64,000 nt of DNA from Halodesulfurarchaeum sp. (GCA_034520565.1 JAXHNL010000002.1:1216001-1280000), one strand, 5' to 3'; counted from the stretch's first letter, positions 29,739 through 46,167 are shown. Translations and numbers: made by a program. Notes: generated by a model from the letters alone, not told the origin.

Positions 29739-29771
29739 GTCGGCGGGTTTCGGATTCGGCCGCTTTCAGGA

Positions 29772-30080
29772 CTACCAGGACGGCGTTTCGAATCCGGCTT
29801 TTTCGAGCAGCGGCCGCCAGCGGGACTGGATGGTGAGTCGGGAGACGTCGGCCGCATCGGCGACTGCCGTTTGGGATCGTTGGTCGCCGGCGATCAGTGC
29901 GCCGGCGTAGATGCTCGTCGCGAGGAGCGCGTCTTTCGACCGTTCCTCGACGGGGAGTTGGGAGAGAAACAGTTCCCGGGCGGCCGAACGAGCAGTGGTG
30001 TCCAAGTCGAGTCGTTCCGAGACCCGGTCGAGAGCGGCGAGGGTCGATTGTTCGGCCCGCTCGGTCCCGGCACGATACAT
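29772..30080 (-). CDS. Single cyclin-fold TFB-like protein
   Basis: LLATSIY and SQTAVADAADVSRLTI resemble a TFIIB repeat. Confidence 0.7.
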   Translation of the reverse strand: MYRAGTERAEQSTLAALDRVSERLDLDTTARSAARELFLSQLPVEERSKDALLATSIYAGALIAGDQRSQTAVADAADVSRLTIQSRWRPLLEKAGFETPSW

Positions 30081-30167
30081 GGGCCAGAAAAGTATCGGAA
30101 TGGGGTTAATGCTTTCCCGGTGGTTTCTCGTGAGCCTTATTGGGGTGCCCGGGGTAGTAGTCGATGC

Positions 30168-30250
30168 GCGCGGGTAGCCAAGTGGTCAACGGCGCAGCGC
30201 TTAGGACGCTGTGGGGTAGCCCTCCGCAGGTTCGAATCCTGTCCCGCGCA
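30168..30250 (+). tRNA. tRNA-Leu (anticodon TAG)
   Basis: GCGCGGG/CCCGCGC acceptor stem, CAGCG-CTTAGGA-CGCTG anticodon arm, long variable arm, GGTTCGAATCC. Confidence 0.95.
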
Positions 30251-30699
30251 GTGCGAGACCCGACCAAAGGGAGGGTCTCGGTAAAGGCGAACGGCGAGGA
30301 ACGAGCCGTGAGCCATGAGCGAGAAAACGAGTGAACGAGCAGGCACGGATTCGAGCCCTGGAAACCGAGCGAAGCGAGGTTTCCTCCGGTTCGAATCCTG
30401 TCCCGCGCACTTTTCAGCGACACTCACCGGCGAGGGACCCCCCGGTGTCCCGAGCCGTGAGATCGCGGTTGTAAATGCGTTCACCGGATTCGAATCAGGG
30501 AAGAGCTTTGCTCTGACCGTGGTTCGAATCCTGTCCCGCGCAGTGCGAGACCCGACCAAAGGGAGGGTCTCGGTAAAGGCGAACGGCGAGGAACGAGCCG
30601 TGAGCCATGAGCGAGAAAACGAGTGAACGAGCAGGCACGGATTCGAGCCCTGGAAATCGACCGAAGGGAGATTTCCTCCGGTTCGAATCCTGTCCCGCG
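30229..30699 (+). repeat. Tandem array of tRNA-Leu 3'-end copies with structured modules (A-B-A')
   Basis: GGTTCGAATCCTGTCCCGCG(CA) at 30229, 30388, 30521 and 30680 (periods 159/133/159); A and A' differ internally at only 4 nt. Confidence 0.95.
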
Positions 30700-30709
30700 G
30701 TATCAGTCG

Positions 30710-31276
30710 TTATTTCCACTTGATCGAACAGCCGCGTGACGGAATCTCCTCGACGTCGACCGGTTCGCCCGCGAGCACCGCGTCAATGGCCTGCCGCATC
30801 TCGAAGCCGGGTTCTCCGCTCGGTTCAGCGTCCGGGCTCTGGGCGTCGTCCAGCCGCCCGTGGTACACGAGCGTGAACTCGCCGTCGGTGCCATCGAAGA
30901 GGAACGGATCGGGCGTGCACGCTGCTCCGTAGGCCTCGGCCACTGCCTGTGACCCGTCCCGAAGGTAGGCGTCGTAGGCAACCGTCCCGTCCGCGACCAG
31001 TTCCCGCATTCGCTCGAACGAATCGTCGGGGTACTCCTCGGCGTCGTTGGGATTGATCCCGACGACTGCGACGTCGTCGTAGTCCGTGGCGATGTCGTTC
31101 AGCGTCTCGAACTTCGACTTCGCGTACGGACAGTGGTTGCAGGTGAACACGACGAGGAGGGCGTCGTACTCACCGAAATCCGACAGCGAGTACGTTTTGT
31201 CGTCGGTCCCCGGGAGTTCGAAGTCCGGTGCCGGCGTGTCGTGTTCGAGTTCGTCGGTCGAAGATTCGACAACCAT
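30710..31276 (-). CDS. Thioredoxin-fold AhpC/TSA family protein
   Basis: APDFELP, CNHCPY, ACTPD, YHGRLDD and GCSIKWK motifs. Confidence 0.9.
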   Translation of the reverse strand: MVVESSTDELEHDTPAPDFELPGTDDKTYSLSDFGEYDALLVVFTCNHCPYAKSKFETLNDIATDYDDVAVVGINPNDAEEYPDDSFERMRELVADGTVAYDAYLRDGSQAVAEAYGAACTPDPFLFDGTDGEFTLVYHGRLDDAQSPDAEPSGEPGFEMRQAIDAVLAGEPVDVEEIPSRGCSIKWK

Positions 31277-31380
31277 GCCCGACCGTAGCAGCCCCCGGCT
31301 CAAACGGATTTGGGTGGCGGACCGACCGTCCGGGACCGTCGTCTCGGGCATTTATGCGGCGGCGGCCTGTACGTTCGTCT

Positions 31381-31659
31381 ATGCCCGACCGCAAGCGAGC
31401 TCACGTCTACGTCTCCGGACGGGTGCAAGGGGTCTACTTTCGGGCGAACACGCGCGATCAGGCCCGGAAACGTGACGTCGATGGCTGGGTCAAAAATCTC
31501 GCGGACGGCCGCGTCGAAGCGGTCTTCGAAGGCGAGCCGGCCGCCGTCGAGTCGATGATCGAGTGGTGTCACGAGGGGAGCCCGGCTGCCGAAGTTAGTG
31601 ACGTCACCGTTTCCACGGAGGAACCGATTGCGCTGGAGGGGTTCGAGATCAGGCGCTAA
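31381..31659 (+). CDS. acyP: Acylphosphatase
   Basis: VSGRVQGVYFR and GWVKNLADGRVE. Confidence 0.95.
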   Translation: MPDRKRAHVYVSGRVQGVYFRANTRDQARKRDVDGWVKNLADGRVEAVFEGEPAAVESMIEWCHEGSPAAEVSDVTVSTEEPIALEGFEIRR

Positions 31660-31672
31660 CCCGTCTCGCGTT

Positions 31673-32413
31673 TCACTCCTCGTCGGCCACGCTCGGGTGC
31701 TGGGTCGGTTCATCCGGGTGCGGTTCGGCAAAGAACGATTGCATGACCTCGAGCGATTCGGCCTCTCGATCCCGGCGTTCCGACTCGGAGATTTCCTCAC
31801 AGCCCGGAGGGACGTCTCGACTGCGGCCGGTGAAGTAGCCCTCTGGAGCGATCCAGTCGTGGTAGAAATTCACGTCCGAATCCTCGACGACGGCGACGCC
31901 CACTGATGCTCCGTGTCCGGCGACGATGACCGTCTGATACGGTTGCATCGCCAGCCGTCCAGCGGCGTAGAGCCCGTCGACGCCGGTCCGGCCCCGGTCG
32001 TCGGTCTCGACGAAATCCTTCCCCCGGGAGACGATTTCGACCCCGTCGAGAGCTTCGAGAAAGTCGACTGTATTTTTCGTCGCGGCGATGACTGCTGTAG
32101 TCTGGACGGTCTCACCATCCGCCGTCGTCGCCTGAAACCCGTCTCCGGTGCGTTCGAGGTCGGTGACTCGTGCCTGTCTGCGACTCGCGCCAGCCCGTTC
32201 TGCCTGTTCGCCCATCATCTCGAGGAGGAGCCGGCTGTTGACTCCGGCAGGGAAGCCTGGATAGTTCTCGAGATGGGCGTTCCGGCGGAGGATCGGCTCG
32301 CCATCGTTGAGTATCAACGTGTCCAATTCCGCCCGAGCGGTGAAAATCCCGGCTGAGAGACCGGCCGGTCCGCCCCCAATGATCAATACGTCCCAGGTTG
32401 TCGATCGGTTCAT
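31673..32413 (-). CDS. FAD-dependent oxidoreductase (thioredoxin-reductase-like, short)
   Basis: IIGGGPAGLSA, ENYPGF and TGVDGLYAAG motifs. Confidence 0.85.
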   Translation of the reverse strand: MNRSTTWDVLIIGGGPAGLSAGIFTARAELDTLILNDGEPILRRNAHLENYPGFPAGVNSRLLLEMMGEQAERAGASRRQARVTDLERTGDGFQATTADGETVQTTAVIAATKNTVDFLEALDGVEIVSRGKDFVETDDRGRTGVDGLYAAGRLAMQPYQTVIVAGHGASVGVAVVEDSDVNFYHDWIAPEGYFTGRSRDVPPGCEEISESERRDREAESLEVMQSFFAEPHPDEPTQHPSVADEE

Positions 32414-32472
32414 AAACGACATTCCACGCCCGAGGGGGAAGAAAGGGTGGGTGGCTCCGTCGCTTGCTGGTT

Positions 32473-33108
32473 TCAGTACTCGACCGCGACTGCCCGAACT
32501 GGCGCGCCATCGACCTGGAGCGGGAGCGGAAATGCGCGCAATTCGAACCGCTCCGGGACCCGTTTCAGGCCGGTGAGGTTCTCGAAAATCAGGTTCTCGG
32601 CGCCCAAGATTGCTTCGTGGGCCTTGAAGCCATCCGGCTCGTCGGCGCTCGCGGACAGACTTGGCGTCGGATCGGGATTGAGCGTATCCGAGCCGACCGA
32701 GAAATCCCGTTTTGCACACACCGTCGCGGCCTCGGGGCTGAGGTACGGGTGGTCGAAATATCGGTCCGTCCCCCAGTGTTCGTCCCAGTTCGTTTGAAAG
32801 ATCACGCAGTCAGCCGTCTCGTCTTCCGGGATCCGCTCGGGGGGAATCGGTTCCCGGGCCTCGAGGTCCCGACAGTCGACTTTCACCGCGTCGAACACGA
32901 ATTCGTCGACGGAAAATTCGGCGAGTTTCTTCCCATCCGGGATGATGTGAGCCGGCGCGTCGACGTGGGTGCCGGCGTGGCTCCCGGTCTCGATTTTGGT
33001 CGATCGGTAGCCCTCGGTTTCGTGTACCGCGTTTGGCGAGACGTGGACGTCGTCGTCTGCGGGATAGGTCTGTAACCCGTCGACGAACGGGTGGGAGAGG
33101 TCCTCCAT
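32473..33108 (-). CDS. Cyclase/kynurenine formamidase family protein
   Basis: HAGTHVDAPAH, ENL and DGAPVRAVA motifs. Confidence 0.9.
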   Translation of the reverse strand: MEDLSHPFVDGLQTYPADDDVHVSPNAVHETEGYRSTKIETGSHAGTHVDAPAHIIPDGKKLAEFSVDEFVFDAVKVDCRDLEAREPIPPERIPEDETADCVIFQTNWDEHWGTDRYFDHPYLSPEAATVCAKRDFSVGSDTLNPDPTPSLSASADEPDGFKAHEAILGAENLIFENLTGLKRVPERFELRAFPLPLQVDGAPVRAVAVEY

Positions 33109-33161
33109 ACCATTTGCTCCGGTTGGCACCGGCAAAATACTGCTGAAGACGACGGGCCCAG

Positions 33162-33614
33162 TTACGCGTCTCGCATTCCGACAGGAGACACCAGCCCGAG
33201 TTCCCGGACCATGCCCAACGTATCCCAGTAGGACCAGATCTCGACGATCTTACCGTCCTCGAACTGGAACATGTTCAGGCCGGTGCCGGAGAAGTCCTCG
33301 CCTTCGCCCTCGATGCCGAAGAGCTTCTCCGTCTGGGTGCCAGCGGAGGACCACCTGACGGCGTATTCGTCGCCGTCGCCGAAGATCGTCTCGACCTCGT
33401 ATTCGATGTCCGGAAATGCAGCGTGGTAGCGCTTGACGAACGCCTTGACCTGTCCCAGATTTTTGAGCGTGCCCGGCGTGACACTGCGGGGACCGTGATA
33501 CTTGATGTCCTCTGCGAGGATTTCCTCTGCAACGTCCGTATCTCCCTCGGTGAACATCTCCTCGTAATACCGCTCGATGGCGGTCTCGTGATCTACCATG
33601 CCTTGTGTCACCAT
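33162..33614 (-). CDS. SnoaL-like ester cyclase family protein
   Basis: AAFPD, GTQ...LFGI and FEDGKIVE-x-W-x-YWD motifs. Confidence 0.85.
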   Translation of the reverse strand: MVTQGMVDHETAIERYYEEMFTEGDTDVAEEILAEDIKYHGPRSVTPGTLKNLGQVKAFVKRYHAAFPDIEYEVETIFGDGDEYAVRWSSAGTQTEKLFGIEGEGEDFSGTGLNMFQFEDGKIVEIWSYWDTLGMVRELGLVSPVGMRDA

Positions 33615-33714
33615 ACCAACCTACGGCGGCCGAGCCATTAACCGTTCGGGGACCCCCCGATTCGTGCCCCTATTTTTCGACCCTGGGTGTCATCGTGGAA
33701 ATTGCCACCTGCGC

Positions 33715-34086
33715 TCAGAGAGCCTGAGCAAGTGCGCGAGTGAGTATCCAGGCAGCTCCCAGTGCGAGTAACGCCCCGAGGAACGTTCCGGCGGCGTTCC
33801 CGACGGCCCGATACCGGTCCCCGGTTTCCCAGAGTCGGACTGTTTCGACGGAAAACGAGGAGAAGGTGGTGAAGGAGCCGGCCACGCCAGTCCCGAGGAA
33901 GAGCACAAGTTCGTTTCCCATTCCGAGAAAGGTCACGGACCCGAGCAGAAAGGTCCCGGCGACGTTCACTGTGATCGTTCCGTAGGGATACACAGTCCCG
34001 TCGATTCGACTGCTCGCCAACTGTCGAAGTATTGCGCCGATTGCACCGCCGGTTCCGACGATGTGGGCGGGCTCGATCGGGATCAT
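33715..34086 (-). CDS. crcB: Fluoride efflux channel CrcB/Fluc (second copy)
   Basis: GGAIGAILR, GTITVN and GSFTTFSSF motifs. Confidence 0.92.
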   Translation of the reverse strand: MIPIEPAHIVGTGGAIGAILRQLASSRIDGTVYPYGTITVNVAGTFLLGSVTFLGMGNELVLFLGTGVAGSFTTFSSFSVETVRLWETGDRYRAVGNAAGTFLGALLALGAAWILTRALAQAL

Positions 34087-34478
34087 CGACTCACCCGCCC
34101 TTCGAATCGTACGGCCACTGCCCGTCCCACGATCACGCCGGCAAATCCCAGCCCGTAGGTGGCCAGTACGTTGAATACGAACCATGCTGGCTGGCTTTGG
34201 ACCGAGAGGAGCGCGAACGTACTGTAGGTCGTAAAGGACGAGAGAAAGCCCGTGGACACCAGAAGACGTGTTTCCATCGAGAGCCGGTCCGTGCGAAGAG
34301 CCACGTAGATGACGAGCCCGAGAGCAAAACTGCCAGTTGTATTCACGGCGAGTGTGGCAGGCAGCGCCGGCCAGAACTGTCCGATGAGATATCGGAGGTT
34401 CGATCCGGCGAATCCACCGATACCGACCAGTGCCATCGTCTCGAGTGCCCGAATCGGGCGGAAATCGCGTGCTGTCAT
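34083..34478 (-). CDS. crcB: Fluoride efflux channel CrcB/Fluc (first copy)
   Basis: GGFAGSNLRY, TLAVN and TGFLSSFTTYSTF motifs. Confidence 0.92.
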   Translation of the reverse strand: MTARDFRPIRALETMALVGIGGFAGSNLRYLIGQFWPALPATLAVNTTGSFALGLVIYVALRTDRLSMETRLLVSTGFLSSFTTYSTFALLSVQSQPAWFVFNVLATYGLGFAGVIVGRAVAVRFEGRVSR

Positions 34479-34487
34479 GACTCGATA

Positions 34488-34541
34488 GAAGGAGTCATCA
34501 GCCGCGAATCGGCAGTTGGATCAGGCGGACTCCATCGCCTG
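34488..34541 (-). ncRNA. Fluoride riboswitch (crcB motif)
   Basis: Minus strand reads GGCGATGGAGTCCGCC...GCTGATGACTCCT, matching the consensus with GGAGT/ACTCC pseudoknot; directly upstream of crcB. Confidence 0.92.
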
Positions 34542-34642
34542 TTGGGGAATTACACTCGTCAGTGAAGTCGTTTGCGCATTGTCGGGCGATGTTGTGAATT
34601 ACTAACAAAACACATATTATTATACCACGACAATTTTTGCCT

Positions 34643-35044
34643 ATGCGGTATCATATTCTCATGCCCGTCGACCGTGACGCCGACCGAACCAACGCGCAGG
34701 TCGATTACCTGTTGACTTCCCCGATGGCGCCCGAGGATCTCGTGGTCCGGATCCTTCACGTCCTCCCGCGGGAGGACGCGGACATCGATGACGAGGAGAA
34801 CTTCGAGGGCAACGAGGCGGCGATCGAGGCAGCGAATCGGTTGGAGGGTGCAGGCGCGACTGTCGCTCGTCGGATGGACACCGGGCCCGTCGCGGCGGCG
34901 ATTCTCGAGCACGCCGAGGAGATCGACGCCGACCAGATCGTTATGAGCGGACGCAAGCGCGATGGGATCTCCGACGTGTTACTCGGAAGTACTGCGACGG
35001 ACATCATTCAGGCGACGAAACGGCCGGTCGTCATGACCGGGTAG
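34643..35044 (+). CDS. Universal stress protein
   Basis: ILMPVD, IVMSGR...LLGSTA and RPVV motifs. Confidence 0.9.
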   Translation: MRYHILMPVDRDADRTNAQVDYLLTSPMAPEDLVVRILHVLPREDADIDDEENFEGNEAAIEAANRLEGAGATVARRMDTGPVAAAILEHAEEIDADQIVMSGRKRDGISDVLLGSTATDIIQATKRPVVMTG

Positions 35045-35050
35045 CGGCGG

Positions 35051-36820
35051 TCACTTTTCGCTCGGGGGGTGGTCGTACCGGGATGGAATCATCGCTGTTT
35101 CCACGTATCTGTTGCCTCCTGCGTAGTCGACCCCCGGCTGTATGAACGGATACGGTCCCTCTGCAGGCGTGTTCTGAACTGTCCCGCCGGACTCGGGTGT
35201 CGTGACGAGGTTCATCACCTCGTATGCAACCGGCGAACGGGTCTCGAGGTACTCGACGAGCACGTCGGCCGGAATCGCGTCACGGGTCTCCACGTTCCTG
35301 AAGGGAAAGCCACACCCGCCGAGATCCCGCGTTGGGGTACCGGGCCGTCGGAAGGTAGCCACGCGGTAGGTTGCCTCCGGGTCGATCGGTTCGTCGTCGA
35401 CGGTCATGGAGACCAGCCGCCGACCCCGTTTTGCCGTCGGGTCGACTACCAACTCGACGTTCGAGGAGAACGCACGCACGCGGCCGTCCTCCTGATCGTA
35501 GACGTGGGCGGTGAAGTTGTCGATGAGGTAGTTTTCGACGTGTGAGACGAGCTGTTGGCCCCAGGCGTCTCCGGCGGCGACCGGGGCCGTCATCGGGTAG
35601 AACGTGAACACGTCTTCGAGAGTGATTTCTCCGGCCGGGATCGCCTGCCCGAAGCGGTTGCCGTGGGTAACCGCGAGATCGGTCTCGAAGGTCTCCCTGA
35701 GGGCGTCGTTGAAGAGCGTATTCCACGCGCTCTCGAGGAACGACTGGCGGGCCAGATCGAATTTCGTCTCGCCGACCACCGTCGAGAGCGGTCGTGTGAG
35801 TGTGACCGGGCCACGCTGGAAGTCCGGATCCTCGTCGAAAAACGGGGTTCGAAGCCGTTCGATCGTCTCCGCGGTTGCCTCGTCCGGTGCTGGGGTGTAG
35901 GGGGCGTCCTTCGTGAAGGTGTAGAGGACGTGTCTGAACGCCGGTCCACGTTCGTCGAAGCGGACGTCTACCCGTCCAAGTGCCTCGCCCATGCCCGATT
36001 CGATCACCATCGTTTCGGTTCGGTCGATCAAGATGGGTTCGTACGTATACTCGTGGGTGTGTGCGCTGAGGGCCACGTCGACACTGTCGAAGTCCTTTGC
36101 GGCCTGAACCATCCACGGGAGACCGATCTCGGTGACTGCGACGACCAGATCTGCACCTGCCTCCCGGGCGGCAGTCGCGGTTTCCTCGAGCAGGACCGGT
36201 GACTTTCCGAACTGATATTTGCCGTCGTGGAAGGCCGGGGCCATCCTGTCGATGTAGGGATTTGTCATTCCGACGACGCCGATCGTTCGGCCGCTCCGCT
36301 CGAAGAGCGAGTACCCCTCGTACAACTGGGACCCTTCGGCGTCAGAGAGGTTCGTCGCGAGAGTCGGGGCCTCGACGGCGTCGAAGAGGTCCAGAGCGGA
36401 TCCGTCCCGGGCCCCCTCGTGGCCGAAGTCCCAGTTCCCGGGCACGTACACATCGGGATCGACGTGCTCGTTAATCGGTTCGAGCATGATCTCTCCGTCC
36501 GTGAACGTCGCCTCCGCCGTCCCGTGGAAGGTGTCGCCACTCATCAACACGAGCGACTCGTTGGCTTCGCGTAGCTGATCGAGTTTGGCCACGTGAGTTG
36601 CCAGCCCACGCACGGGCCGAATCGCCCGCTTTCCGGACTCGAAGTCGATTGGCGAACTTCCCCTGCTTGTGCGGTAGAAAACCTGATTCGCCGGTCCGAG
36701 TTGGCCGTGGAGATCACTCAGATGGGCGATTGTCAGGTCGGAAGACCCCGCAGGTGCTGACTGCCCGTTGAAGTACCGCCACTCTCCGAGCCAAGTGGTA
36801 TTACTATCCATGTCTGTCAT
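35051..36820 (-). CDS. Bifunctional metallophosphatase/5'-nucleotidase (SoxB-like), no visible signal peptide
   Basis: SDLHG, GDTFHG, GNWDF and AHTHE motifs plus a 5'-nucleotidase-like C-terminal domain. Confidence 0.8.
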   Translation of the reverse strand: MTDMDSNTTWLGEWRYFNGQSAPAGSSDLTIAHLSDLHGQLGPANQVFYRTSRGSSPIDFESGKRAIRPVRGLATHVAKLDQLREANESLVLMSGDTFHGTAEATFTDGEIMLEPINEHVDPDVYVPGNWDFGHEGARDGSALDLFDAVEAPTLATNLSDAEGSQLYEGYSLFERSGRTIGVVGMTNPYIDRMAPAFHDGKYQFGKSPVLLEETATAAREAGADLVVAVTEIGLPWMVQAAKDFDSVDVALSAHTHEYTYEPILIDRTETMVIESGMGEALGRVDVRFDERGPAFRHVLYTFTKDAPYTPAPDEATAETIERLRTPFFDEDPDFQRGPVTLTRPLSTVVGETKFDLARQSFLESAWNTLFNDALRETFETDLAVTHGNRFGQAIPAGEITLEDVFTFYPMTAPVAAGDAWGQQLVSHVENYLIDNFTAHVYDQEDGRVRAFSSNVELVVDPTAKRGRRLVSMTVDDEPIDPEATYRVATFRRPGTPTRDLGGCGFPFRNVETRDAIPADVLVEYLETRSPVAYEVMNLVTTPESGGTVQNTPAEGPYPFIQPGVDYAGGNRYVETAMIPSRYDHPPSEK

Positions 36821-36907
36821 TCGTCCTACGCGTGTCGGCCGTATAGATGCTAGCCCCGCCCCGAAGCCGCACAAACGTTTTGAGGGTTCACCGAGTTCGT
36901 TTACGTA

Positions 36908-37717
36908 ATGGTCGAACTGTGTGCTCTGCTGGATGACATCGTTGCCGATCCCGATGCGCTCTTTCTCTTCTCACCGACAGGGTCACAGTACGATGACGCG
37001 TCGTCGGTCGAGGAGATGCCAGTGGTCGTCGTCGGCACGGAAAACGAAGTCGAAGCGACCGAATTCGTCGAAGTGCCACTGGCGTTCGACAGCGTGAAAG
37101 ATTACATTTACTTCGCGCTGGAGGGTGCGGCCGATCAGGAACTCGTCGAACCCGGTGACGAGGTACTTGCCGTCTTGAGCCTGATTGACGACGGGCGGGA
37201 CATGATCTCCCGAGTCAGGGTCAAGGAGGGCACACACGGCATTTACGACCTGTTCACGGACTCGCGAGCGGACCCGGACGTGCTTCGGGACGCCTTCGAC
37301 GTCGCCATCGAACTCGGGAGGAAGGGGCAAAAGGGCAAACCGGTCGGCGCCCTGTTCGTCGTGGGCGATGCGGGCAACGTCATGAACAAGTCCCGACCGC
37401 TCTCGTACAACCCCTTCGAGAAGTCCCACGTTCACGTCGGCGATCCAATCGTGAACGTGATGCTCAAGGAGTTCTCTCGGTTGGACGGCGCCTTCGTCGT
37501 TTCGGATTCGGGGAAAATCGTCTCGGCGTACCGGTATCTCGAACCCTCCGCCGAAGGAGTAGACATTCCCAAAGGACTGGGTGCCCGGCATATGGCTGCG
37601 GGCGCCATCACTCGGGATACGGGGGCCGTGGCGATCGCGCTCAGCGAAAGCGACGGGATGGTTCGGGCGTTCAAGGGCGGTGATCTGGTCCTCGAACTCG
37701 ATCCGGAGGAGTACTGA
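36908..37717 (+). CDS. dacZ: Diadenylate cyclase DacZ
   Basis: LDGAFV and GLGARHMAA DAC motifs; GKPVGALFVVGD. Confidence 0.92.
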   Translation: MVELCALLDDIVADPDALFLFSPTGSQYDDASSVEEMPVVVVGTENEVEATEFVEVPLAFDSVKDYIYFALEGAADQELVEPGDEVLAVLSLIDDGRDMISRVRVKEGTHGIYDLFTDSRADPDVLRDAFDVAIELGRKGQKGKPVGALFVVGDAGNVMNKSRPLSYNPFEKSHVHVGDPIVNVMLKEFSRLDGAFVVSDSGKIVSAYRYLEPSAEGVDIPKGLGARHMAAGAITRDTGAVAIALSESDGMVRAFKGGDLVLELDPEEY

Positions 37718-38493
37718 ATGGTCGACGTGATCGCCGACTTCACGCTCGAAACCCGGTATCTCTGGGCCGCGGTCATCGTTGATCGGCGGGCTGCTCGGTG
37801 GTCACTTTTTCGGGCAACTCAATCGCCGGCTATTACGTGGATTGGGTGTCGACGAGGCTGTAGAGGGAACGAGTCTCGAGCGAACGGCCCGGAACTTCGG
37901 CACCGATACAGTCGCGATTCTCGCCCAGAGTACGGCCTGGTTGATTTACGGGTTTGCAGTGGTTTACAGTCTGCAGGTCGCCGATATCGTGGAAACGAGC
38001 GTGCTGTTGGCCCGGGGTGCTGACCTTCTCCCATCCTACATTCTCGCCACCCTGATCGTGATGGGTGGGTTGCTTCTCGGGGACAAAATGGAAGTCTCTG
38101 TGAACGAGCGACTCAAGGGGGTCAAGTTCCCTGAAGTCAGCGCTCGTCGGACGGGTCTTCCGGTACACGGTCGTATTCGTTGCGATACTTCTGGCACTCG
38201 CCCAAATCGGTGTCGCCGTCGGTGTTCTGTTGATCCTTCTCGGAGCCTATCTTTTCGCCGTCATCGTTCTCCTCACGACGGCACTGCACCAGCTTCTTGC
38301 CGCGGCCGGTGCCGGTCTGTATCTCTTGTTCTCACAACCATACACCATCGGCGATCAGGTTGCAATCGGGGAACACGAGGGCGTCGTACAAGAGATCGAC
38401 CTGTTTTCTACCTCGATCGAAAAGGATGGGCGGGTCTTTCTCGTGCCGAACCATCTCGTCCTCAAGAAGGGGGCGACGTTGATCCGCGAGTGA
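37718..38493 (+). CDS. mscS: MscS-family mechanosensitive channel (apparent frameshifts near 37779 and 38141)
   Basis: Transmembrane segments in three frames; PYTIGDQV...GVVQEIDLF...VPN; directly after dacZ. Confidence 0.8.
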
Positions 38494-38982
38494 TCACTCG
38501 ACGGGCTCGGCCGGAACTCCGGCGACGGTCGTCTCGGGTGGCACGTCCTCGGCTACGAGGGAGTTTGCAGCGACCCGAGCCCCGTCGCCGATTTCCACCC
38601 CGGGAAGGACGATCGCGCCGGCGCCGATCATGGCTTCGGCACCGATTCTGACCGGCCCGGTTCGGAACTCGTCCTGAAGGAACTCGTGACAGAGGATGGT
38701 CGCGTCGTACCCGACGATCGCGTCTGCTTCGATCGTGATGAGTTCGGGAAAGAACACGTCGGGAGTCGATTCGAGCCCCCAGCGGGCCCCAGGCTCCACC
38801 GTCATTCCGACCCGACGGTATAGCCAGTTCTTGAACCGGAGGCTCGGGGAATGCCTCGCTACCACGATCGCGGCGTAGTTGCGCGCGACGATCCACGGCG
38901 ATTTCGCCTTCCGCCAGTGACGAAGCGAGTTTCCGGGACCGGTCGCCGTCCGTTCGAGGCGCTCGTGGCGACGGTTAGACAC
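38494..38982 (-). CDS. Hexapeptide-repeat acyltransferase
   Basis: IGAEAMIGAGAIVLPGVEIG...VAGVPA. Confidence 0.88.
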   Translation of the reverse strand: MSNRRHERLERTATGPGNSLRHWRKAKSPWIVARNYAAIVVARHSPSLRFKNWLYRRVGMTVEPGARWGLESTPDVFFPELITIEADAIVGYDATILCHEFLQDEFRTGPVRIGAEAMIGAGAIVLPGVEIGDGARVAANSLVAEDVPPETTVAGVPAEPVE

Positions 38983-39023
38983 GACTGTCGGTAGGGCGTC
39001 GTGTTTCATTAACCCTCCGAGGG

Positions 39024-39191
39024 TTACTCGACGATCGGGTTGAACCCGCCCGTGATGTTCCACTCGTGGACACAATAGACCTTCCCGACCTCGCCCTCGA
39101 CGCGCCAGGCGCCAGTCGATTCGTCCCAGACCTCCTCGCGCTCACACCGCAGACACCGCCGGGTCTGCGGACGACGTATTTCGACGCTCAT
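39024..39191 (-). CDS. HEWD-family small protein (55 aa, not in ORF track)
   Basis: MSVEIRRPQTRRCLRC...YCVHEWNITGGFNPIVE. Confidence 0.8.
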   Translation of the reverse strand: MSVEIRRPQTRRCLRCEREEVWDESTGAWRVEGEVGKVYCVHEWNITGGFNPIVE

Positions 39192-39235
39192 ATGTGTCCT
39201 ATGGTATCACTACGCAATAAACCTGCAGGAACGTG

Positions 39236-40252
39236 TTACTTCGCTTCATTCGTTCTTTCGGACACGAGTCCGAGGTCGAGTGGGACCTGACCGTCTGCGT
39301 ATCCAGCGACCGTCCCTTCGGGACGCAATCGATAGACCACCGCCGGGCGATGGCCGACTGCTGGTTCGCTTGCCATGACCTGTTCGAACTCCGCGTCGGT
39401 GAAACTCGTACAATCCACCAGCAGAACCACGCCTCCTCCGTGAGCGTCGAGTTGGCCATCGACCTTGGTTGCCGCCGTCAGTTTGACCGCCTCGACTGCC
39501 GAATTTGCGTTCCGTCGGTGTGGTGGAGCCGGATGGGTCACCTCCACGAGGTGGGCACGATCGTTCGTTTCGACCCGGAAATCGAGTGAGTGCCCGGTCG
39601 AAACGGGCGCCTCCGGTTCGATGTCGTACCCGGCTGCATCAAGCAGGTACGCGGCATTGAACTCGCCCATCGCGGCAGTCATCCGAATCATGTTCAGCCC
39701 GTCGGAGGTGCCGAGCTTTCCGGCCATGAGGTGACGGTAGTCGTCGAAGACGCCACTCGCGAGAAACGATTCGTAAAATTCGAGGGCCGGTTCTGCATCG
39801 TCGATGGGGAAGCCGGCGGCGTGCTCTGAGAAGAACGTCCGCGAAGTTTCCCGACCGTCTTTCGAGAGAAACACGGGGAGGAAGAACCACGAGAGGTGGG
39901 GGAACTCGGTCAGCCAGGGAGACTCCTCGTGCAGTTGGGCCAATAGTTCGCGCTCGGCCCAGTCGGCGACACCGGGCGGCACTTCATCGAAGTCGTACTT
40001 CTCGGTTCGCCAGAGCACCTCCGGCGTTTCGGTGTTCCCCATCCAGTAGGCCTGTCCCTCCGTCCAGGCGAACAGGGCGATGTCGCCGTTTTCCATCTCG
40101 AATCGTCGTGCCTCGTAGTCGTCTGGCGGGGCGAACCAGGGGGTCGTCATTTCCGCACCGAGTGCGTCGTCGAGAGATCGATAAATCCGGTCCGTCACCC
40201 GGCCTTCTGACCAGGATTCCGTGGACCGCCGGAAGCGTAACAAACTAGCCAC
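39236..40252 (-). CDS. Conserved haloarchaeal protein (DUF5784-like)
   Basis: Acidic ORF with GNTETP and FFLPVFLSKDG; C-terminal D...VEV pattern. Confidence 0.65.
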   Translation of the reverse strand: MASLLRFRRSTESWSEGRVTDRIYRSLDDALGAEMTTPWFAPPDDYEARRFEMENGDIALFAWTEGQAYWMGNTETPEVLWRTEKYDFDEVPPGVADWAERELLAQLHEESPWLTEFPHLSWFFLPVFLSKDGRETSRTFFSEHAAGFPIDDAEPALEFYESFLASGVFDDYRHLMAGKLGTSDGLNMIRMTAAMGEFNAAYLLDAAGYDIEPEAPVSTGHSLDFRVETNDRAHLVEVTHPAPPHRRNANSAVEAVKLTAATKVDGQLDAHGGGVVLLVDCTSFTDAEFEQVMASEPAVGHRPAVVYRLRPEGTVAGYADGQVPLDLGLVSERTNEAK

Positions 40253-40296
40253 GAGCGGAAGTACGCCACCACCCCGTTTACGCCTTCCCCTCGGTG

Positions 40297-40776
40297 TCAG
40301 TCCTCTTCGAGGGAGCGTTCCATCATCAGCCGCTGTGGGGTGTAGCCCCGGTCCCGGTACCACTGAATCGCCGTCTCGTTCTCTGCCATTGCACTAATGG
40401 CCACGACGTCCGCGCCTCGATCTGCCAGCTTCGTTTCGGCACGCGAGAGCAACGCCGAACCGATGCCCTGTCCCCGCACGCGCGGTTTCACGTACACGTT
40501 TTCGATCACGCCGCGGACGACAGACTGCTCGTACAGCCCAGATTCGCGGTAAAACATGACAAAGCCAAGTAGTTCTTCGGCTCCCCCGTCCGTTGCCGTG
40601 GCGACATCCAGCATGTCCCCTGCAACGTACTGGCCCAGGAGGTCCCGGGCCGCAGCTCGGTTGGGTTCTCCGACGATATGAGAGCCATACGAACGCTGTC
40701 CCTCGACGAGGTTCACCCAGCATTCCAGAATCTCGTCGACGTCGGACACGGTTGCCTCGACGATTTCGAAGGCCAT
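40297..40776 (-). CDS. GNAT family N-acetyltransferase
   Basis: YVKPRVRGQGIGSALL and N-x-x-A-x-x-WY motifs. Confidence 0.9.
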   Translation of the reverse strand: MAFEIVEATVSDVDEILECWVNLVEGQRSYGSHIVGEPNRAAARDLLGQYVAGDMLDVATATDGGAEELLGFVMFYRESGLYEQSVVRGVIENVYVKPRVRGQGIGSALLSRAETKLADRGADVVAISAMAENETAIQWYRDRGYTPQRLMMERSLEED

Positions 40777-41975
40777 CAAGTATCCAGGGCTTCGATCGCC
40801 GGGAGGGTCTGGCCGGTGAGCATCGCGAGTGCGGCCCCGCCACCCGTGCTCACGTGGTCGAATCCGGTGATGTCGAATTTCCGGATGGCCCGGGCGGTGT
40901 CGCCACCGCCGACGACGCTGTATTCGGTCTCGGCGACTGTCTTGAACAGGCCCTTTGTTCCGACCCGGAAGGCCGGGTTTTCGAAAACGCCGGCCGGGCC
41001 GTTGAGAATAGCCGTCCCCATGTTAGAAAGGCAGTCGGCATACTGTTCGACCGTTCGGCTTCCGATGTCCATCACATCGCCGTCCCGTGACGTCGGAAGC
41101 TCGTCGATTGGAACTTCCCGACGACCGTCGTTCCCGGGCACGGCAACGTCAACCGGAAGGTGGATGTGCTCGCCGTGTTCCTCGAGGAGGACGGCGGCGC
41201 GATCGATCTGGTCCCAGACGTCCTTTTCGAGGATGTAATCCGCCGCTTTTTCTCCGAGGTCGATTCCGTCGGCCATGAGAAACACGTTCGCCACGAGCCC
41301 CGCCGTCAACACCTCGTCGGCCAGTCCGGCTTCGATTCCGTGTCGAATGACGCGGATCGCGTCCGGAATTTTGGCACCGCCGACCACGTATGCCCGGGGG
41401 GTGGGTGTCTGGTCGATATTTCCCAGGACGTCGATTTCCTGCTCCATGACCCGTCCGGCGTACGCGTCGAGCACGTGCGAGAAGCCGACGAGTGTCGGCT
41501 GGGATCGGTGGGCCGCGGCAAAGGCGTCGTTGACGAACGCGTCGAAATGGGGTGCGAGCCTGTCGACGACGTGCGTTTCGGCGGCGCGGGCAGGGTCGAA
41601 CTCCATGTACTCTTCGCTGTAGAAACGCGAGTTTTCGAGGAGGAGTGCCTGCCCCGGTTCGAGACCGTCGATGGCCTCGCGAGCGCCGGCGGAACTGGTG
41701 GCATCCGTGTACATCACCGGCGCATCGAGCAATTCGTCAAAGCGGGTCGCGTGGGAGTCAAGCGGCTCGAACTCCGACCCACCGGGCCGTCCCTGGTGGG
41801 CGATCACGGTCACTCGGGCATCGCGCTCGAGAAGTTCGGCGAGCGTATCGACGTGGGCTCTGAGCCGGGCATCGTCAGCCAGTTCCCCGGCCGGCGTGAG
41901 CGGGCTGTTGATATCGACCCGAACGCCGACCGAGGTCCCCGAAAGGGACAGGTCATCGAGGGTCCGTATCGCCAT
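40776..41975 (-). CDS. pgk: Phosphoglycerate kinase
   Basis: VRVDINSP, HQGRPG, NDAFAAAHR and HVSTGGGA motifs. Confidence 0.96.
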   Translation of the reverse strand: MAIRTLDDLSLSGTSVGVRVDINSPLTPAGELADDARLRAHVDTLAELLERDARVTVIAHQGRPGGSEFEPLDSHATRFDELLDAPVMYTDATSSAGAREAIDGLEPGQALLLENSRFYSEEYMEFDPARAAETHVVDRLAPHFDAFVNDAFAAAHRSQPTLVGFSHVLDAYAGRVMEQEIDVLGNIDQTPTPRAYVVGGAKIPDAIRVIRHGIEAGLADEVLTAGLVANVFLMADGIDLGEKAADYILEKDVWDQIDRAAVLLEEHGEHIHLPVDVAVPGNDGRREVPIDELPTSRDGDVMDIGSRTVEQYADCLSNMGTAILNGPAGVFENPAFRVGTKGLFKTVAETEYSVVGGGDTARAIRKFDITGFDHVSTGGGAALAMLTGQTLPAIEALDT

Positions 41976-42027
41976 GTATCCCAACGGTTCGTGGCGGGGT
42001 CCAAATGCGTTTCTGTGTCGGCCCGAG

Positions 42028-42579
42028 CTACACCGTCCGGCAGTCCGGACAGAGGAGTTGGCCGTCGACGTTGACCAGATCCTGCGAGAACGAACCACAC
42101 CCCTCACAGATGCTCTGATTCGAGTAGCCGTCGTCGACCGCGGTGTCCCGGCTGTCGACCATCGAGGCCGATTGCATCCCACCGGTCGATGCTTCGGTAC
42201 GCCCGGGCTGTTTTGCCGCCGCCAGATCCCGCGCGTCGAGGACGCCGAGGATCTCTGTTCCGTCTTCGACCAGCACGTGACTGCGGCCGGTTCCAACCAA
42301 CAATCTGGTTGCCTCTCCCAGCGTGGTTTCGGGCGTCACCACCGGCGGATCTCTGTTCATGACCGTCGAGACTGGTGTCGACTCGACGTCCCCGCCGTCG
42401 ACGAGATGGTCCAGAATCTCTCCGGCCGTCAGGATTCCTGCGGCGTCCTGTCCCCGCAAGACGACCGCTGCAGTCTCCCCGGATTTGCGCATCAGCGCGG
42501 CCGCTCCGAGAACCGCGTCTGACTCGCTCACGCCGAGGTAATCCCCGGAGAGGATGTCACGGACGGGGAGTGGACTCAT
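42028..42579 (-). CDS. CBS-domain protein with C-terminal zinc ribbon
   Basis: Two CBS repeats; CEGC...CPDC. Confidence 0.8.
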   Translation of the reverse strand: MSPLPVRDILSGDYLGVSESDAVLGAAALMRKSGETAAVVLRGQDAAGILTAGEILDHLVDGGDVESTPVSTVMNRDPPVVTPETTLGEATRLLVGTGRSHVLVEDGTEILGVLDARDLAAAKQPGRTEASTGGMQSASMVDSRDTAVDDGYSNQSICEGCGSFSQDLVNVDGQLLCPDCRTV

Positions 42580-42708
42580 ACATCAGTATACCATCGATTC
42601 GGTCTAAAAGGTATCCCCGGTAGTCTTATGCGTTGAGATGGTGTAGCATACGAACTAGTCGGCGAGGATCCGGGGGATTCAACTTGGCGGGACTCACCAC
42701 CTCTTGCA

Positions 42709-43323
42709 ATGGATCGGCCGTACGCGATCGGCATCGCCGGCGGAACCGGCGCCGGGAAGACCACGGTCGCCCGCGAACTCACCGAAAACGTCGAAGAATC
42801 GGTCACGATACTTCCGCTCGATAACTACTACGAGGATCTCTCGGACCTTTCCTTCGAGGAGCGACAGGGCGTCAATTACGACCATCCCTCCGCGTTCGAA
42901 TGGGACCTCTTACGGGGGCACCTGCAAACGCTACTCACGGGGGAGGCCATCGAGATGCCACAATATAACTTCGAGCGACATCTTCGCGAACCCGAACCGG
43001 TGACCGTCGAACCGTCCGAGGTCCTCGTCCTCGAGGGGATTCTCGCACTCTACGACGAGGGGGTGAACGACCTCCTCGACCTCAAAGTCTACGTGGAAAC
43101 TGACGCGGACGTCAGGATTCTCCGGCGCATTCGCCGGGACGTCGTCGAGCGGGGTCGCGATCTGGAGGGGGTGATCGATCAGTACCTCTCCACGGTCAAA
43201 CCGATGCACGAACAGTTCGTCGCACCGACGAAAAAGCGGGCCGACCTGATCATTCCGGAGGGCGCAAATCGGACGGCGGTCGATCTGCTCCAGGAAAAGG
43301 TGCGACGAGAGATCGAGGACTAA
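42709..43323 (+). CDS. udk: Uridine kinase
   Basis: GIAGGTGAGKTT, NYDHP and RRIRRD motifs. Confidence 0.95.
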   Translation: MDRPYAIGIAGGTGAGKTTVARELTENVEESVTILPLDNYYEDLSDLSFEERQGVNYDHPSAFEWDLLRGHLQTLLTGEAIEMPQYNFERHLREPEPVTVEPSEVLVLEGILALYDEGVNDLLDLKVYVETDADVRILRRIRRDVVERGRDLEGVIDQYLSTVKPMHEQFVAPTKKRADLIIPEGANRTAVDLLQEKVRREIED

Positions 43324-43327
43324 AACG

Positions 43328-43405
43328 ATTCAGTTCCCGGGGTGGCAGTCGGTAATTCAGTTTTCGACGTGACAGTCGGGCAAATCAGTTATCGGCGTGG
43401 TAGTC
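43328..43405 (-). repeat. Three degenerate tandem copies of the 3' end of the 43385 gene
   Basis: TCAGTT-N6-GTG-NN-AGTC at 43330, 43357 and 43385. Confidence 0.6.
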
Positions 43406-43696
43406 CCAGAGGCCGGCGGCCCTGATCGCGTCTCCGACGGCGCGGTGGAACTCGGTTTTCGTCTCGAAGGAGTCGACGGAGAGGTGTTCGAAAATCTCTG
43501 CGACGCTGTGGATTTTTCGGTGATTGATGCGGACCGGTTTTGCCCCGTGACGATCGAGGTACGTCTCGACCGACAGCGGGAAGGATTCTTTCGGCTCGAA
43601 CTTCGAGAGGATGGCCATGTCGAACCGGCGCATTCCGTTGCTTCCCTCCTCGCCGTCGGGATCGATCGGCCAGTCGGAGCGGTCTCCCGTTGTCAT
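43385..43696 (-). CDS. Conserved haloarchaeal protein (DUF5785-like)
   Basis: DWPIDPDGEEGS-x-G-x-R-x-FDMAIL. Confidence 0.7.
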   Translation of the reverse strand: MTTGDRSDWPIDPDGEEGSNGMRRFDMAILSKFEPKESFPLSVETYLDRHGAKPVRINHRKIHSVAEIFEHLSVDSFETKTEFHRAVGDAIRAAGLWDYHADN

Positions 43697-43815
43697 TGGC
43701 TTCTCTACCCGTCCGGGTACTTTCAAGATTCCGCTATTTTGAGCCGAGCAACGGAAACTCCATCCTGCAACCGAATTACTTCGGAAACCAACATTTGATG
43801 GTATTGATCTTCCGT

Positions 43816-43895
43816 TTTAGATTAGCCTAAACCGTCTTGTACCGATTACAAACAACTGAGAACGGTGGCAGGCTTTACTTTTAGGGTATCCTAAA
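43816..43895. promoter_or_regulatory. Two TTTAG-N6-CTAAA palindromes (DtxR/IdeR-like operators)
   Basis: TTTAGATTAGCCTAAA at 43816-43831 and TTTAGGGTATCCTAAA at 43880-43895 in an AT-rich divergent spacer. Confidence 0.7.
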
Positions 43896-43916
43896 CCACA
43901 AGTGCAGCAGTAGACA

Positions 43917-44453
43917 ATGACCCAAACAATAGAGGCCCGTTTGCCAGGGGGCGACCTCTCCCTGGATCTGAACGGCACGTGGGCGGCGTACTGGCTCTTC
44001 CTGCTTCGAGTGATCACCGGCTACTGGATGTTCCACGCCGGCTTGACGAAGGTGTGGGAGGCGTACGTCCTCGGTTCACCCTTCGATGCGGCCTGGTTCA
44101 TCCAGTTCGCTTCGCAGGGCACCATTCTCGAGGGATTCATGGCGCTGTTCAACAATTCCGCGGGTATCGCCTTCGCGAACTTCATGGTCCCGTGGGGTGA
44201 GCTCCTCATCGGGCTCGGAATTCTGCTCGGGGCGTTCACGAGGCTTGCCGCGTTCTTCGGCGGCTTCCTGATGATCTTCTTTTACTTCATCAACGGCGCC
44301 TGGAGCCACGGGATGGTGAACAGCGACCTGATGGGGATGATCCTCTTCATTACGGTCGCCGTCTTCGGTGCCGGCCGAATCTGGGGCGTGGATCAGTACC
44401 TTGAGCAGATGGACTGGGCCAAGAACCCGATCGCGAGGGCCATTCTGGGATGA
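43917..44453 (+). CDS. DoxX-family membrane protein
   Basis: LRVITG...HAGLTK, WGELLIGLGILLG-x-x-TRLAA and GAGRIWGVD motifs. Confidence 0.88.
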   Translation: MTQTIEARLPGGDLSLDLNGTWAAYWLFLLRVITGYWMFHAGLTKVWEAYVLGSPFDAAWFIQFASQGTILEGFMALFNNSAGIAFANFMVPWGELLIGLGILLGAFTRLAAFFGGFLMIFFYFINGAWSHGMVNSDLMGMILFITVAVFGAGRIWGVDQYLEQMDWAKNPIARAILG

Positions 44454-44466
44454 CGGAGGAAAACCA

Positions 44467-44775
44467 ATGACACAAGAACACCTCACGGCTGTCGAACGAA
44501 CGGGAATGATCGTGATCGGGGCGCTCGTCGTGATCGCGCTGCCGATCATCGGAACGCTCAACACCATCGCCGGATCGATGAGTGGCATGTTCGAGTACGC
44601 GGAGGGCGACTCCTCGGGCTACGCGCTGACCGAGGCTGCGGTCCCCGAGGCAGCGGAGATTACGGCGACCCCGCTCGTCGGCCCGAACACGCGAGCCTGG
44701 TTGATCCTCGTCGCGCTGCTCGTGCTGGGCGCAGTGGCAATCTACCGGCTCGGCACCTTCGGCGAGGCGGCCTGA
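44467..44775 (+). CDS. Hypothetical two-TM membrane protein
   Basis: GGAGG Shine-Dalgarno upstream; two hydrophobic segments; likely co-transcribed with the DoxX gene. Confidence 0.7.
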   Translation: MTQEHLTAVERTGMIVIGALVVIALPIIGTLNTIAGSMSGMFEYAEGDSSGYALTEAAVPEAAEITATPLVGPNTRAWLILVALLVLGAVAIYRLGTFGEAA

Positions 44776-44892
44776 TCGGACTTCGAAGCTACTGAACGTC
44801 GGACGACGCTGTTTTTGCGTTTTTCGGGGAGCTGAAGGTCCTCCTGAACAATGCGGTCGAGCCGACTCTGCTCCAGTGGGGTGACGGAATAG

Positions 44893-45184
44893 CGGTGCGG
44901 AGGGGATTTGAACCACGAGGACTTCGCTCAACCAGGTTTCGCTCGTCCTCTGGGCTCAAATCCCTCGTCCCCGTTCAAACGAAGACGGCGCGGTTCCTGA
45001 CGGAACACGCGCCTGGTGTGTTAGAAGCGGTGAGGAGGGGATTTGAACCAGAGGAAGACTCGCTCCCGTTGGTCGCTCGTCTTCCAGGGCTCAAATCCCT
45101 CGTCTCCGTTCAAACGTAGACGGCGCGGTTCCTGACGGAACACGCGCCTGGTGTGTTAGAAGCGGTGAGGAGGGGATTTGAACC
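44893..45184 (-). repeat. Tandem array of tRNA-Ser 3'-end copies with two 135-bp structured modules
   Basis: CGGTG(A/C)GGAGGGGATTTGAACC at 44893, 45028 and 45163 (period 135). Confidence 0.95.
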
Positions 45185-45247
45185 CCTGAGGCTACAATAG
45201 CCACCTGCTCTCAAGGCAGGCGCGTTGGGCCGCTTCGCTACCTCACC
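45163..45247 (-). tRNA. tRNA-Ser (anticodon TGA)
   Basis: GGTGAGG/CCTCACC acceptor stem, CCTGC-CTTGAGA-GCAGG anticodon arm, long variable arm, GGTTCAAATCC, G discriminator. Confidence 0.93.
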
Positions 45248-45273
45248 ACGACCGATACATTCGAGCGGACGGG

Positions 45274-46045: not shown

Positions 46046-46167
46046 CGACGCCACCCCTGACGGCGATTCACAGCGCATGGCAGTGGCTCGACGGTGGGGC
46101 CCCTTGAACTGCTCGCCTGCGGCTCGAATGGTGGCAAAATCCCTACTCGCGGGTGTCGATTGGCCCC

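Follow-up and report, generated by a model that had tools for sequence, protein, structure and literature searches.

Structured modules arrayed behind haloarchaeal tRNA genes: candidate miniature integrative cassettes with a fold-back attachment-site hairpin

Short, structured DNA modules stand in tandem directly behind two tRNA genes of Halodesulfurarchaeum sp., in a stretch of 64,000 nucleotides (hereafter the window; C2:1216001-1280000) of the 1.86-Mb, 62% G+C assembly G000, which is 80.7% complete. Three of the five modules follow tRNA-Leu(tag) and two follow tRNA-Ser(tga), all in the sense of the tRNA, and every one of them ends with a 22-nt copy of the 3' end of its host, which begins at G52/G53 in the T-arm and stops with the discriminator base. 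Such modules lie exclusively at tRNA 3' ends, share one covarying fold, decay with distance from the tRNA and turn over between related genomes. They belong to an order-wide family found in nearly every haloarchaeal genome searched, which, as far as our searches go, is apparently undescribed; a preliminary description, made from the DNA sequence, had known of no formal account, and none was found in the literature, Rfam 15 included. We tentatively read the modules as miniature, gene-less, non-autonomous integrative cassettes that occupy the attachment (att) site at the tRNA 3' end and carry a fold-back att hairpin, a reading that we consider a little likelier to fail than to hold.

The first array follows tRNA-Leu(tag) (30168-30250, +; called by ARAGORN, 57.7 bits with the Rfam tRNA model), and its repeated tail equals the last 22 nt of this gene (30229-30250). 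Leu module 1 (30251-30409, +; 159 nt) opens with two 5' tandem-GA hairpins, placed by sequence and folds at ~30254-30280 and ~30286-30314, which are followed by the antisense arm GGATTCGAGCC (30347-30357), an inner hairpin (30358-30387) and a tail copy matching in 22 of 22 positions (30388-30409). Leu module 2 (30410-30542, +; 133 nt) is of a different subtype, with a 5' hairpin at ~30417-30466, an arm at 30486-30496, a short inner hairpin and again a perfect tail (30521-30542, 22/22). Leu module 3 (30543-30701, +; 159 nt) is 98% identical to module 1 across a 179-nt repeat; the two differ at four positions of the inner hairpin and at the last two tail bases, where both mismatches of the module 3 tail (30680-30701) are found. 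The four inner-hairpin changes from module 1 to module 3 make two compensating pairs, GGAAACC/GGTTTCC becoming GGAAATC/GATTTCC and GC-GAA-GC becoming CC-GAA-GG.

The second array follows tRNA-Ser(tga) (45162-45247, -; ARAGORN, 59.2 bits with the Rfam tRNA model). Ser module 1 (45027-45161, -; 135 nt) consists of a 5' hairpin (~45148-45122), the antisense arm GGATTTGAGCC (45098-45088; its span is also given as 45099-45088), an inner hairpin and a mismatch-free tail copy that reaches to 45027. Ser module 2 (44892-45026, -; 135 nt) is like it in the 5' part, differs in the inner hairpin and has a tail with one mismatch, ending at 44892. Tails thus carry no mismatch in the proximal copies of the window, two in the third Leu copy and one in the second Ser copy. 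In each of the five modules, which open with one or two extra hairpins, an inverted copy of the T-loop part of the tail stands ~30-50 nt upstream of the tail, with a small hairpin between the two arms. Both arms of the preliminary description are located where it had placed them, and its shared core recurs in four of the five modules, the middle Leu module having a variant core. Contigs of the likely source run X1 cover the arrays piecewise only, because the repeats break contigs.

A covariance model (R1) was built from 34 tail hairpins (alignment A1), all from other genomes and none from the window. In the 64 kb it finds exactly the five modules on the sense strand, with E values from 2.5e-15 to 7.5e-7: in the Leu array 30342-30409 (4e-15), 30481-30542 (7.5e-7) and 30634-30701 (8.3e-13), in the Ser array 45028-45103 (2.5e-15) and 44893-44968 (1.9e-8). 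The other matches are weaker reverse-strand shadows of four modules, and otherwise there is nothing. Across the whole 1.86 Mb of G000 (E up to 0.01) there are 37 matches, 35 of which are placed 34-384 nt past the 3' end of a tRNA, with 30 on the same and 5 on the opposite strand (four of these five being shadows of same-strand matches), while the remaining two belong to the array behind an element integrated at tRNA-Arg(tct). No match was found away from tRNA arrays in this genome. By R1, 20 tRNAs are hosts, or 21 with tRNA-Arg(tct), which is about half of the tRNA genes; an initial scan for tail copies had given units after 15 of the 44 ARAGORN tRNAs, and looser scans added more. In all five window modules, and likewise for 29 tail copies spread over 18 tRNAs of G000, a distal tRNA repeat is accompanied by the intact proximal tRNA.

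The family extends over the order of the window's genome, the Halobacteriales. R1 (E up to 1e-4) matches 60 of 61 genomes of the order, with 1-42 matches per genome and about 890 in total. A strict two-arm pattern is present in 69 of 88 genomes of the order and in none of ~312 other genomes sampled from the phylum, and the reversed pattern, used as a control, had no match in any genome searched. The most modules among the genomes searched (42 R1 matches) were found in G063, which belongs to another family and is 99% complete; there, 27 of the best 30 matches lie at most 308 nt behind a same-strand tRNA. Hence the proposal that a single module family sits at the 3' ends of many tRNAs, to be recovered by a covariance-model scan of this genome and of other Halobacteria, was borne out. 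In a scan with one genome per species, the matches listed (at least 120 loci) are mostly from named haloarchaea of many genera, and at least 69 pattern matches have the hairpin directly 3' of a tRNA whose T-loop recurs in it; most of these tails are identical to the host or 1-2 bases off, and a few are far more diverged, down to 15/22. The Ser array had no blastn match in 50,697 phage records. A lone weak plasmid match of the Leu array, in a Haladaptatus megaplasmid, was discarded, as it is not a module by R1 and has no tRNA. A layout of tRNA, spacer, inverted T-arm copy, hairpin and tail was also seen in four unrelated non-haloarchaeal genomes, namely a Nanoarchaeota MAG (metagenome-assembled genome; with a tandem-GA hairpin), a rumen Lachnospiraceae (two units), a Micavibrio and an Acidimicrobiia.

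The modules follow a common grammar of a short T-rich start, one to three small hairpins and a fold-back hairpin made of the inverted and the direct tail copies. The fold is shared by all units examined, the tail pairing with its upstream inverted copy across a conserved inner hairpin. RNAalifold gave 21 pairs for A1, 11 of them with double changes. Paired cells amount to 98.0% in the alignment against 87.2% in shuffles, and double-change cells to 83 against 27.6, values which none of 500 shuffles reached; when the partners were slid by 1-3 columns, 19-48% remained paired. Helix 1, formed by the two arms, was in the search pattern and is therefore not independent evidence, whereas helices 2-4 are. 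Tandem G.A, T.T and fixed internal loops are conserved as non-canonical features.

The small hairpins have a grammar of their own, a stem followed by tandem G.A/A.G, 2 bp and a GNA triloop. In its strict form this tandem-GA motif occurs 71 times in G000 and 5 times in the reversed sequence, 35 of the occurrences being within 700 nt of a tRNA. In 135 modules, a sample partly gathered with a pattern requiring both arms, 169 such hairpins lie in sense and 24 in antisense orientation, and 79 of the 169 sense loops are GNA triloops (GAA 43, GGA 18, GTA 11, GCA 7). The fold of the sense strand, which is the strand of the tRNA, is the more stable one in 74 of 96 modules. Covarying and strand-biased hairpins show that a single strand folds at some stage, and the loop type favours single-stranded DNA over RNA: mini-hairpins of the GCGNAGC type are, in the sections of a 2026 review that deal with them, extraordinarily stable as DNA and much less so as RNA, and are known from single-stranded phage origins, the ssiA signal and phage N4 promoters (PMC13037366). 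About six tandem-GA/GNA-loop hairpins were also seen in a row at C2:762580-762800 (+), immediately 3' of the stop of a thermosome-like gene, with more clusters around C2:1365.9-1368.0 kb, 1394.9-1395.2 kb and 1410.3-1410.5 kb.

The antisense arm tracks its own tRNA, as had been proposed for the two window arrays. At the base facing the variable T-loop position 57, it is complementary to the host in 91 of 96 modules, the five exceptions being four C.A and one other mismatch. Moreover, the 16 nt upstream of the arm pair better with the acceptor strand of the host than with other tRNA tails. For this extension the host has a median rank of 3 of 36 in G000 and is best in 4 of 19 cases; in the larger set it stands at a median quantile of 0.27, with 27 of 96 modules in the best tenth. 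Acceptor pairing is strong for Ser, Gly (21/22 nt inverted), Pro, Phe and Tyr and weak for Leu(tag), so that the pairing into the acceptor strand first described for both window arrays is upheld for the family and for Ser (host rank 1-4 of 36) but is weak for Leu (13-14 of 36). The homologous first units of tRNA-Val(gac) and tRNA-Leu(gag) have near-identical inner parts, and in each of them both arms are fitted to the respective host.

The arrays change between related genomes. Orthologous tRNA-Leu(tag) loci of six congeners, including G000, hold from zero to at least three units, in which 5' hairpins and tail hairpins are recombined in different ways, and some unit parts persist from one orthologous locus to another, their 5' hairpins differing by compensating changes (GAGACC/GGTCTC versus GAGGTC/GACCTC). 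Among metagenome contigs, one from run X1 departs from the window at 30697 for 137 letters, contigs of run X3, from an unrelated brine, have 137 other letters between 30699 and 30709, and X3 also contains a relative with a much shorter first unit. An extra proximal unit at tRNA-Val(gac) is absent from the paralogue tRNA-Val(cac). A tail polymorphism at tRNA-Val(cac), considered as a crossover marker, was dropped because both Val loci share their downstream flank and look like paralogous duplicates. The tails show a clear polarity: in all nine arrays of at least two copies, tail edits never fall with distance from the tRNA, and in seven of them they rise at the first step. Several tails deviate from the host by one inserted base inside the T-loop, and many units open with TTCT or TTTT, much like the trailer or terminator of a tRNA.

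The 64-kb window contains neither an integrase nor a transposase, and no recombinase gene stands beside its arrays, in agreement with the preliminary description. The point must be qualified for other parts of G000, where modules stand directly behind a tyrosine integrase gene with an att core that is itself the tRNA 3' end. Integrase-family matches were found at four places in G000, with three intact frames and a fourth broken by a stop codon. tRNA-Arg(tct) hosts a 9-kb integrated element ending in the intact integrase P0001 (380 aa), which itself ends 45 nt ahead of a 13-nt copy of the tRNA tail; this core is followed at once by a module and then by the full tail, and at a distance of another 4.5 kb an older copy of the P0001 3' end precedes the same succession of core, module and tail. 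The tRNA-Arg(tct) gene itself contains an intron (C2:~516870-516976, +) and was missed by ARAGORN at default settings; it was found via its tail. A 20-kb element at tRNA-Pro(cgg) (C2:706843-726860) ends with a 14-nt tail copy, again followed by a module; its integrase match, of untyped family, lies ~3 kb from the tRNA and is interrupted by a TAG. Patches of low G+C content were seen in this element. In the array of tRNA-Glu(ttc), just upstream of the window, a stretch of 1.1 kb with a toxin-antitoxin-like gene pair lies between the antisense arm and a degenerate tail (C2:1212977-1213800, equivalent to L297:578-1401); the pair comprises a UPF0175 protein and a weak DUF3368 match (E 0.005, under the Pfam cut-off).

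The P0001 family fits the SNJ2 type, whose core is given as 14 bp in the relevant part of PMC5861418. P0001 homologues are found in 136 of 151 Halobacteria, and a P0001 search in IMG/VR gave no match to the pattern. At 30 integrase loci the last 11-14 nt of a tRNA recur 40-70 nt past the integrase stop, and a module follows this core in 12 of 29 evaluable loci. We rejected the idea that modules are simply the P arm of integrase-bearing elements, as 17 of the 29 loci have the core without a module and the elements' own arms differ. Since these arms are unlike modules, the modules are separate units that use the same site.

Taken together, location, bounding tail repeats, decay polarity, turnover and the shared site suggest that the modules insert or recombine as small units at the tRNA att site, every unit having on both sides the direct tail repeats that are the signature of att-site insertion. 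In the model that we tentatively prefer, the T-rich start of a unit would replace the tRNA trailer, and its inverted, partly degenerate copy of the stretch from T-loop to 3' end would pair with the direct copy to form the att hairpin. New units would enter next to the tRNA and would thereby shift the older ones outward, with decay of their tails. Larger elements, such as the 9-kb and 20-kb elements and the 1.1-kb gene pair, use the same att site and share the arrays. The units may be mobile as free units and would then be moved in trans by a tRNA-targeting tyrosine recombinase; the hairpin would presumably be used single-stranded, as folded DNA and not RNA, so that the folded strand rebuilds a duplex resembling the tRNA att site. 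A bolder, order-wide version, which we judge unlikely, would make these tiny mobile cassettes little more than a folded single-stranded att site, with single-strand exchange at tRNA 3' ends, mini-hairpin signals that allow priming and ~20 programmable tRNA targets per genome. It would be the archaeal counterpart of CTXphi- and integron-type recombination, and the same principle may operate in the scattered bacterial and DPANN cases.

Among the closest known systems are attP(+) of the cholera phage CTXphi and integron attC, which are folded single-stranded recombination sites. By analogy, the modules have inverted and direct copies of the site around a structured spacer, which could fold into a target-like duplex, show imperfect pairing with conserved internal loops, and form arrays of short units that each end in such a site, with a toxin-antitoxin-like pair among them. 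They also share the imperfect terminal palindrome, conserved structure and variable sequence that characterise integron cassettes. In contrast to these systems, no partner of the IntI or XerCD type is apparent, no intI and attI stand beside the arrays of the window, arrays lie at 20-21 tRNAs in place of one attI or dif, and units are mostly empty; single-stranded use is suggested here by hairpin statistics and loop type. Like miniature inverted-repeat transposable elements (MITEs), CIMEs and REP/BIME sequences, the modules are short, gene-less, repeated, hairpin-forming and present at many loci in all members of a taxon, with an enzyme probably supplied in trans. Unlike these, they stand strictly at tRNA 3' ends and have arms that copy the host site and change with it; an autonomous parent with the same ends was not found, nor was a Y1/REP-associated transposase in two module-rich genomes.

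With the integrated elements and att arrays of archaeal tRNA genes, the modules share the tRNA 3' site, the bounding tail repeats and the tandem stacking, as far as these are treated in the part of PMC8371274 consulted here, and the 14-bp SNJ2-type core lies within the module tail (cf. PMC5861418). They differ from them in being 76-176 nt long, in which no open reading frame fits, and in being non-coding with a common grammar that is structured and covaries; their repeat covers 22 nt, the T-loop among them, and not 13-14 nt, and they add an inverted copy of the site. As far as the relevant portions of PMC3119063, PMC5861418, PMC8371274 and PMC7002104 go, the tRNA-integrated elements of the literature are larger and have tRNA repeats of 22 to 43 nt. 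The palindrome behind Methanopyrus tRNAs, as described in part of PMC5217627, is unrelated to the modules. A partial resemblance was found in IMG/VR, where at 64 of 80 loci the right arm of a perfect 26-bp palindrome extends into the 3' end of a tRNA (with CCA). The palindrome at L148:8781-8836 is ~60 nt away from where a tyrosine integrase gene starts, and the sequence recurs in two Bifidobacterium genomes (L070 and L073). This Bifidobacterium-type prophage attP resembles a module in its inverted copy, spacer and direct tRNA 3' end, but its 26-bp palindrome is perfect and reaches into the variable region, there is one copy per autonomous phage, and tandem-GA hairpins and arrays are lacking. 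No publication on this palindrome came to light, although no search aimed at it was made. Furthermore, tRNA-like elements in Haloferax, reportedly described by Hoelzle et al. in 2012, may bear on the modules.

Several observations weigh against the cassette interpretation. Neither a free, circular or excised form nor an empty and filled pair with exact junctions was recovered from congener loci and metagenome contigs; what the strain comparison proposed earlier did bear out is that arrays differ between strains and species. No enzyme is tied to the modules, which do not encode an integrase as integrated elements do, and the helper is postulated. The SNJ2-type elements examined have arms unlike modules and share 13-14 nt with the tRNA, not 22. 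A double-stranded circle of 100-175 bp is a poor recombination substrate, which means that the model requires a single-stranded or other intermediate. G-U pairs, the asymmetry of which was tried as a strand test, gave no signal, as they are no commoner in sense than in antisense folds (178 versus 220), and some inner loops are classic RNA tetraloops of the UUCG and CUUG types. Tandem-GA hairpins are found away from tRNA arrays too, as in the row after the thermosome-like gene, and an RNA 3'-end role would suit them as well. That the 135 modules were partly gathered with the two-arm pattern is a further point against the cassette reading. A metatranscriptome contig joins the 3' part of a tRNA-Leu to 102 nt of a relative's module, a weak hint at co-transcription of tRNA and module. 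Finally, units are retained at orthologous loci of species that are ~72% identical in a flanking gene, and this retention, like the occurrence of the family in 60 of 61 genomes, would be just as compatible with a host function.

Much of this would suit the main rival view, in our judgement doubtful, that the modules are structured non-coding RNAs or cis-acting RNA elements, transcribed by read-through from the tRNA or from promoters of their own. The hairpins would stabilise or mark 3' ends, while the tail hairpin would mimic or sequester the tRNA 3' end, for instance by acting as a decoy that draws off enzymes, toxins or integrases which recognise this end, and the repeated tails would reflect gene duplication and not function. 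The strong covariation and the conserved tandem G.A, T.T and fixed internal loops speak for this, as do the strand bias of motifs and folds, the constant coincidence of the sense strand with the tRNA strand, the UUCG- and CUUG-type loops, the near-universal presence in the order and the units kept at orthologous loci with compensating 5'-hairpin changes. The same hairpin grammar after a gene that looks highly expressed, the thermosome-like one, points in this direction too. The RNA-library contig running from tRNA-Leu into a module is a further argument, but it may stem from DNA carry-over, and the contigs show neither ends nor strand. No T-run is present between tRNA-Leu(tag) and Leu module 1; many units, however, open with a T-run right behind the tRNA or behind the tail of the unit before, and this should terminate transcription. 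Moreover, the C-G-closed GNA triloops are weak in RNA according to the corresponding section of PMC13037366. No RNA family is recognised either: cmscan with Rfam 15 over 29000-46500 (E up to 1) gave, apart from matches at chance level, nothing but the two tRNAs and a fluoride riboswitch, and locus L235 has no Rfam family match. An RNA role leaves unexplained the 22-nt identity with the host, the distal decay, and the arrays shared with integrated elements and a gene pair.

It is quite unlikely, in our view, that the modules are inert by-products, either scars of larger elements since lost or local duplications at a recombination-prone site, with the inverted copy kept complementary by hairpin-templated repair (quasi-palindrome correction) and not by selection. 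The coexistence of arrays with integrated elements, the outward tail decay and the shuffling of sub-parts between units would agree with such an origin, and so would Leu modules 1 and 3, identical over their repeat save a swapped inner hairpin and the last two tail bases. The succession of inverted copy, spacer and tRNA 3' end beside an integrase in the Bifidobacterium-type prophage contigs, and the similar layout behind tRNAs of the four non-haloarchaeal genomes, point the same way. Yet scars would not hold a common covarying grammar over 34 or more hairpins that come from different loci and from many genera, nor would they reach 1-42 copies per genome in nearly all genomes of the order. Furthermore, the haloarchaeal element ends examined have no such arm or hairpins, and hence the modules are not their remnants.

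The preliminary description had loosely likened the arm to the guide sequences of IS200/IS605 or to the IS110 bridge RNA, an analogy for which we found no support. In such a model, which appears improbable to us, the arm pairs with the tRNA 3' end and directs an HUH, an IS110-like or another guide-using enzyme, and the tail copy is a target-site duplication made at each insertion. It is attractive that the arm spans exactly the duplicated stretch and tracks the host, and duplication of the target would explain the exact 22/22 proximal tails as well as a leader-proximal growth like that of CRISPR arrays. Against this, the arm is one half of an inverted repeat and pairs in cis, covering precisely the stretch that the module itself repeats, as one covarying hairpin. 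Pairing of arm and acceptor strand is degenerate in most units, and the Leu host ranks as low as stated above; one-base insertions in the T-loop are also unexpected of a fresh duplication, though decay could explain them. As to a co-distributed HUH/TnpA gene, Y1 (HUH) transposase genes are present in four of five module-rich relatives, but PF01797 has no match in G000, within its 80.7% completeness, or in the 99% complete G063 with its 42 R1 matches. IS200/IS605 elements insert 3' of a 4-5-nt target without duplication and have their guide 5' of the end hairpin, which the modules, bounded by 22-nt direct repeats, do not fit; the same repeats set them apart from the palindrome-associated PATE elements. 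To our knowledge, neither IS200/IS605 nor IS110 elements make a 22-nt duplication. No gene adjoins the modules in the window, although no search aimed at IS110-family genes was made. Of the two alternatives raised in the preliminary description, the modules may conceivably act as decoy att sites, and the small-RNA array is the main rival to our reading.

If the modules are indeed integrative cassettes, then about half of the haloarchaeal tRNA genes carry an uncatalogued mobile or recombination-derived unit, which would account for much of the seemingly empty intergenic DNA beside tRNAs and would provide markers for strain typing and for the integration history of each tRNA. It would also suggest that archaeal site-specific recombination involves a step that depends on a single strand or on structure, and of such a step we know no example. 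If they act as RNA, a large and covarying RNA family associated with tRNA 3' ends is still without a name. Under either reading, the use, protection and exploitation of haloarchaeal tRNA att sites become testable.

Between the two arrays of the window lie ordinary housekeeping genes, among them those for a peroxiredoxin, CrcB, a diadenylate cyclase, phosphoglycerate kinase and uridine kinase. The CrcB-family gene (34083-34478, -) is immediately preceded at its 5' side by the fluoride riboswitch (RF01734, 51.9 bits; 34482-34548, -), and a full-length DUF5784 protein of unassigned function is encoded at 39236-40363 (-; E 7.6e-162).

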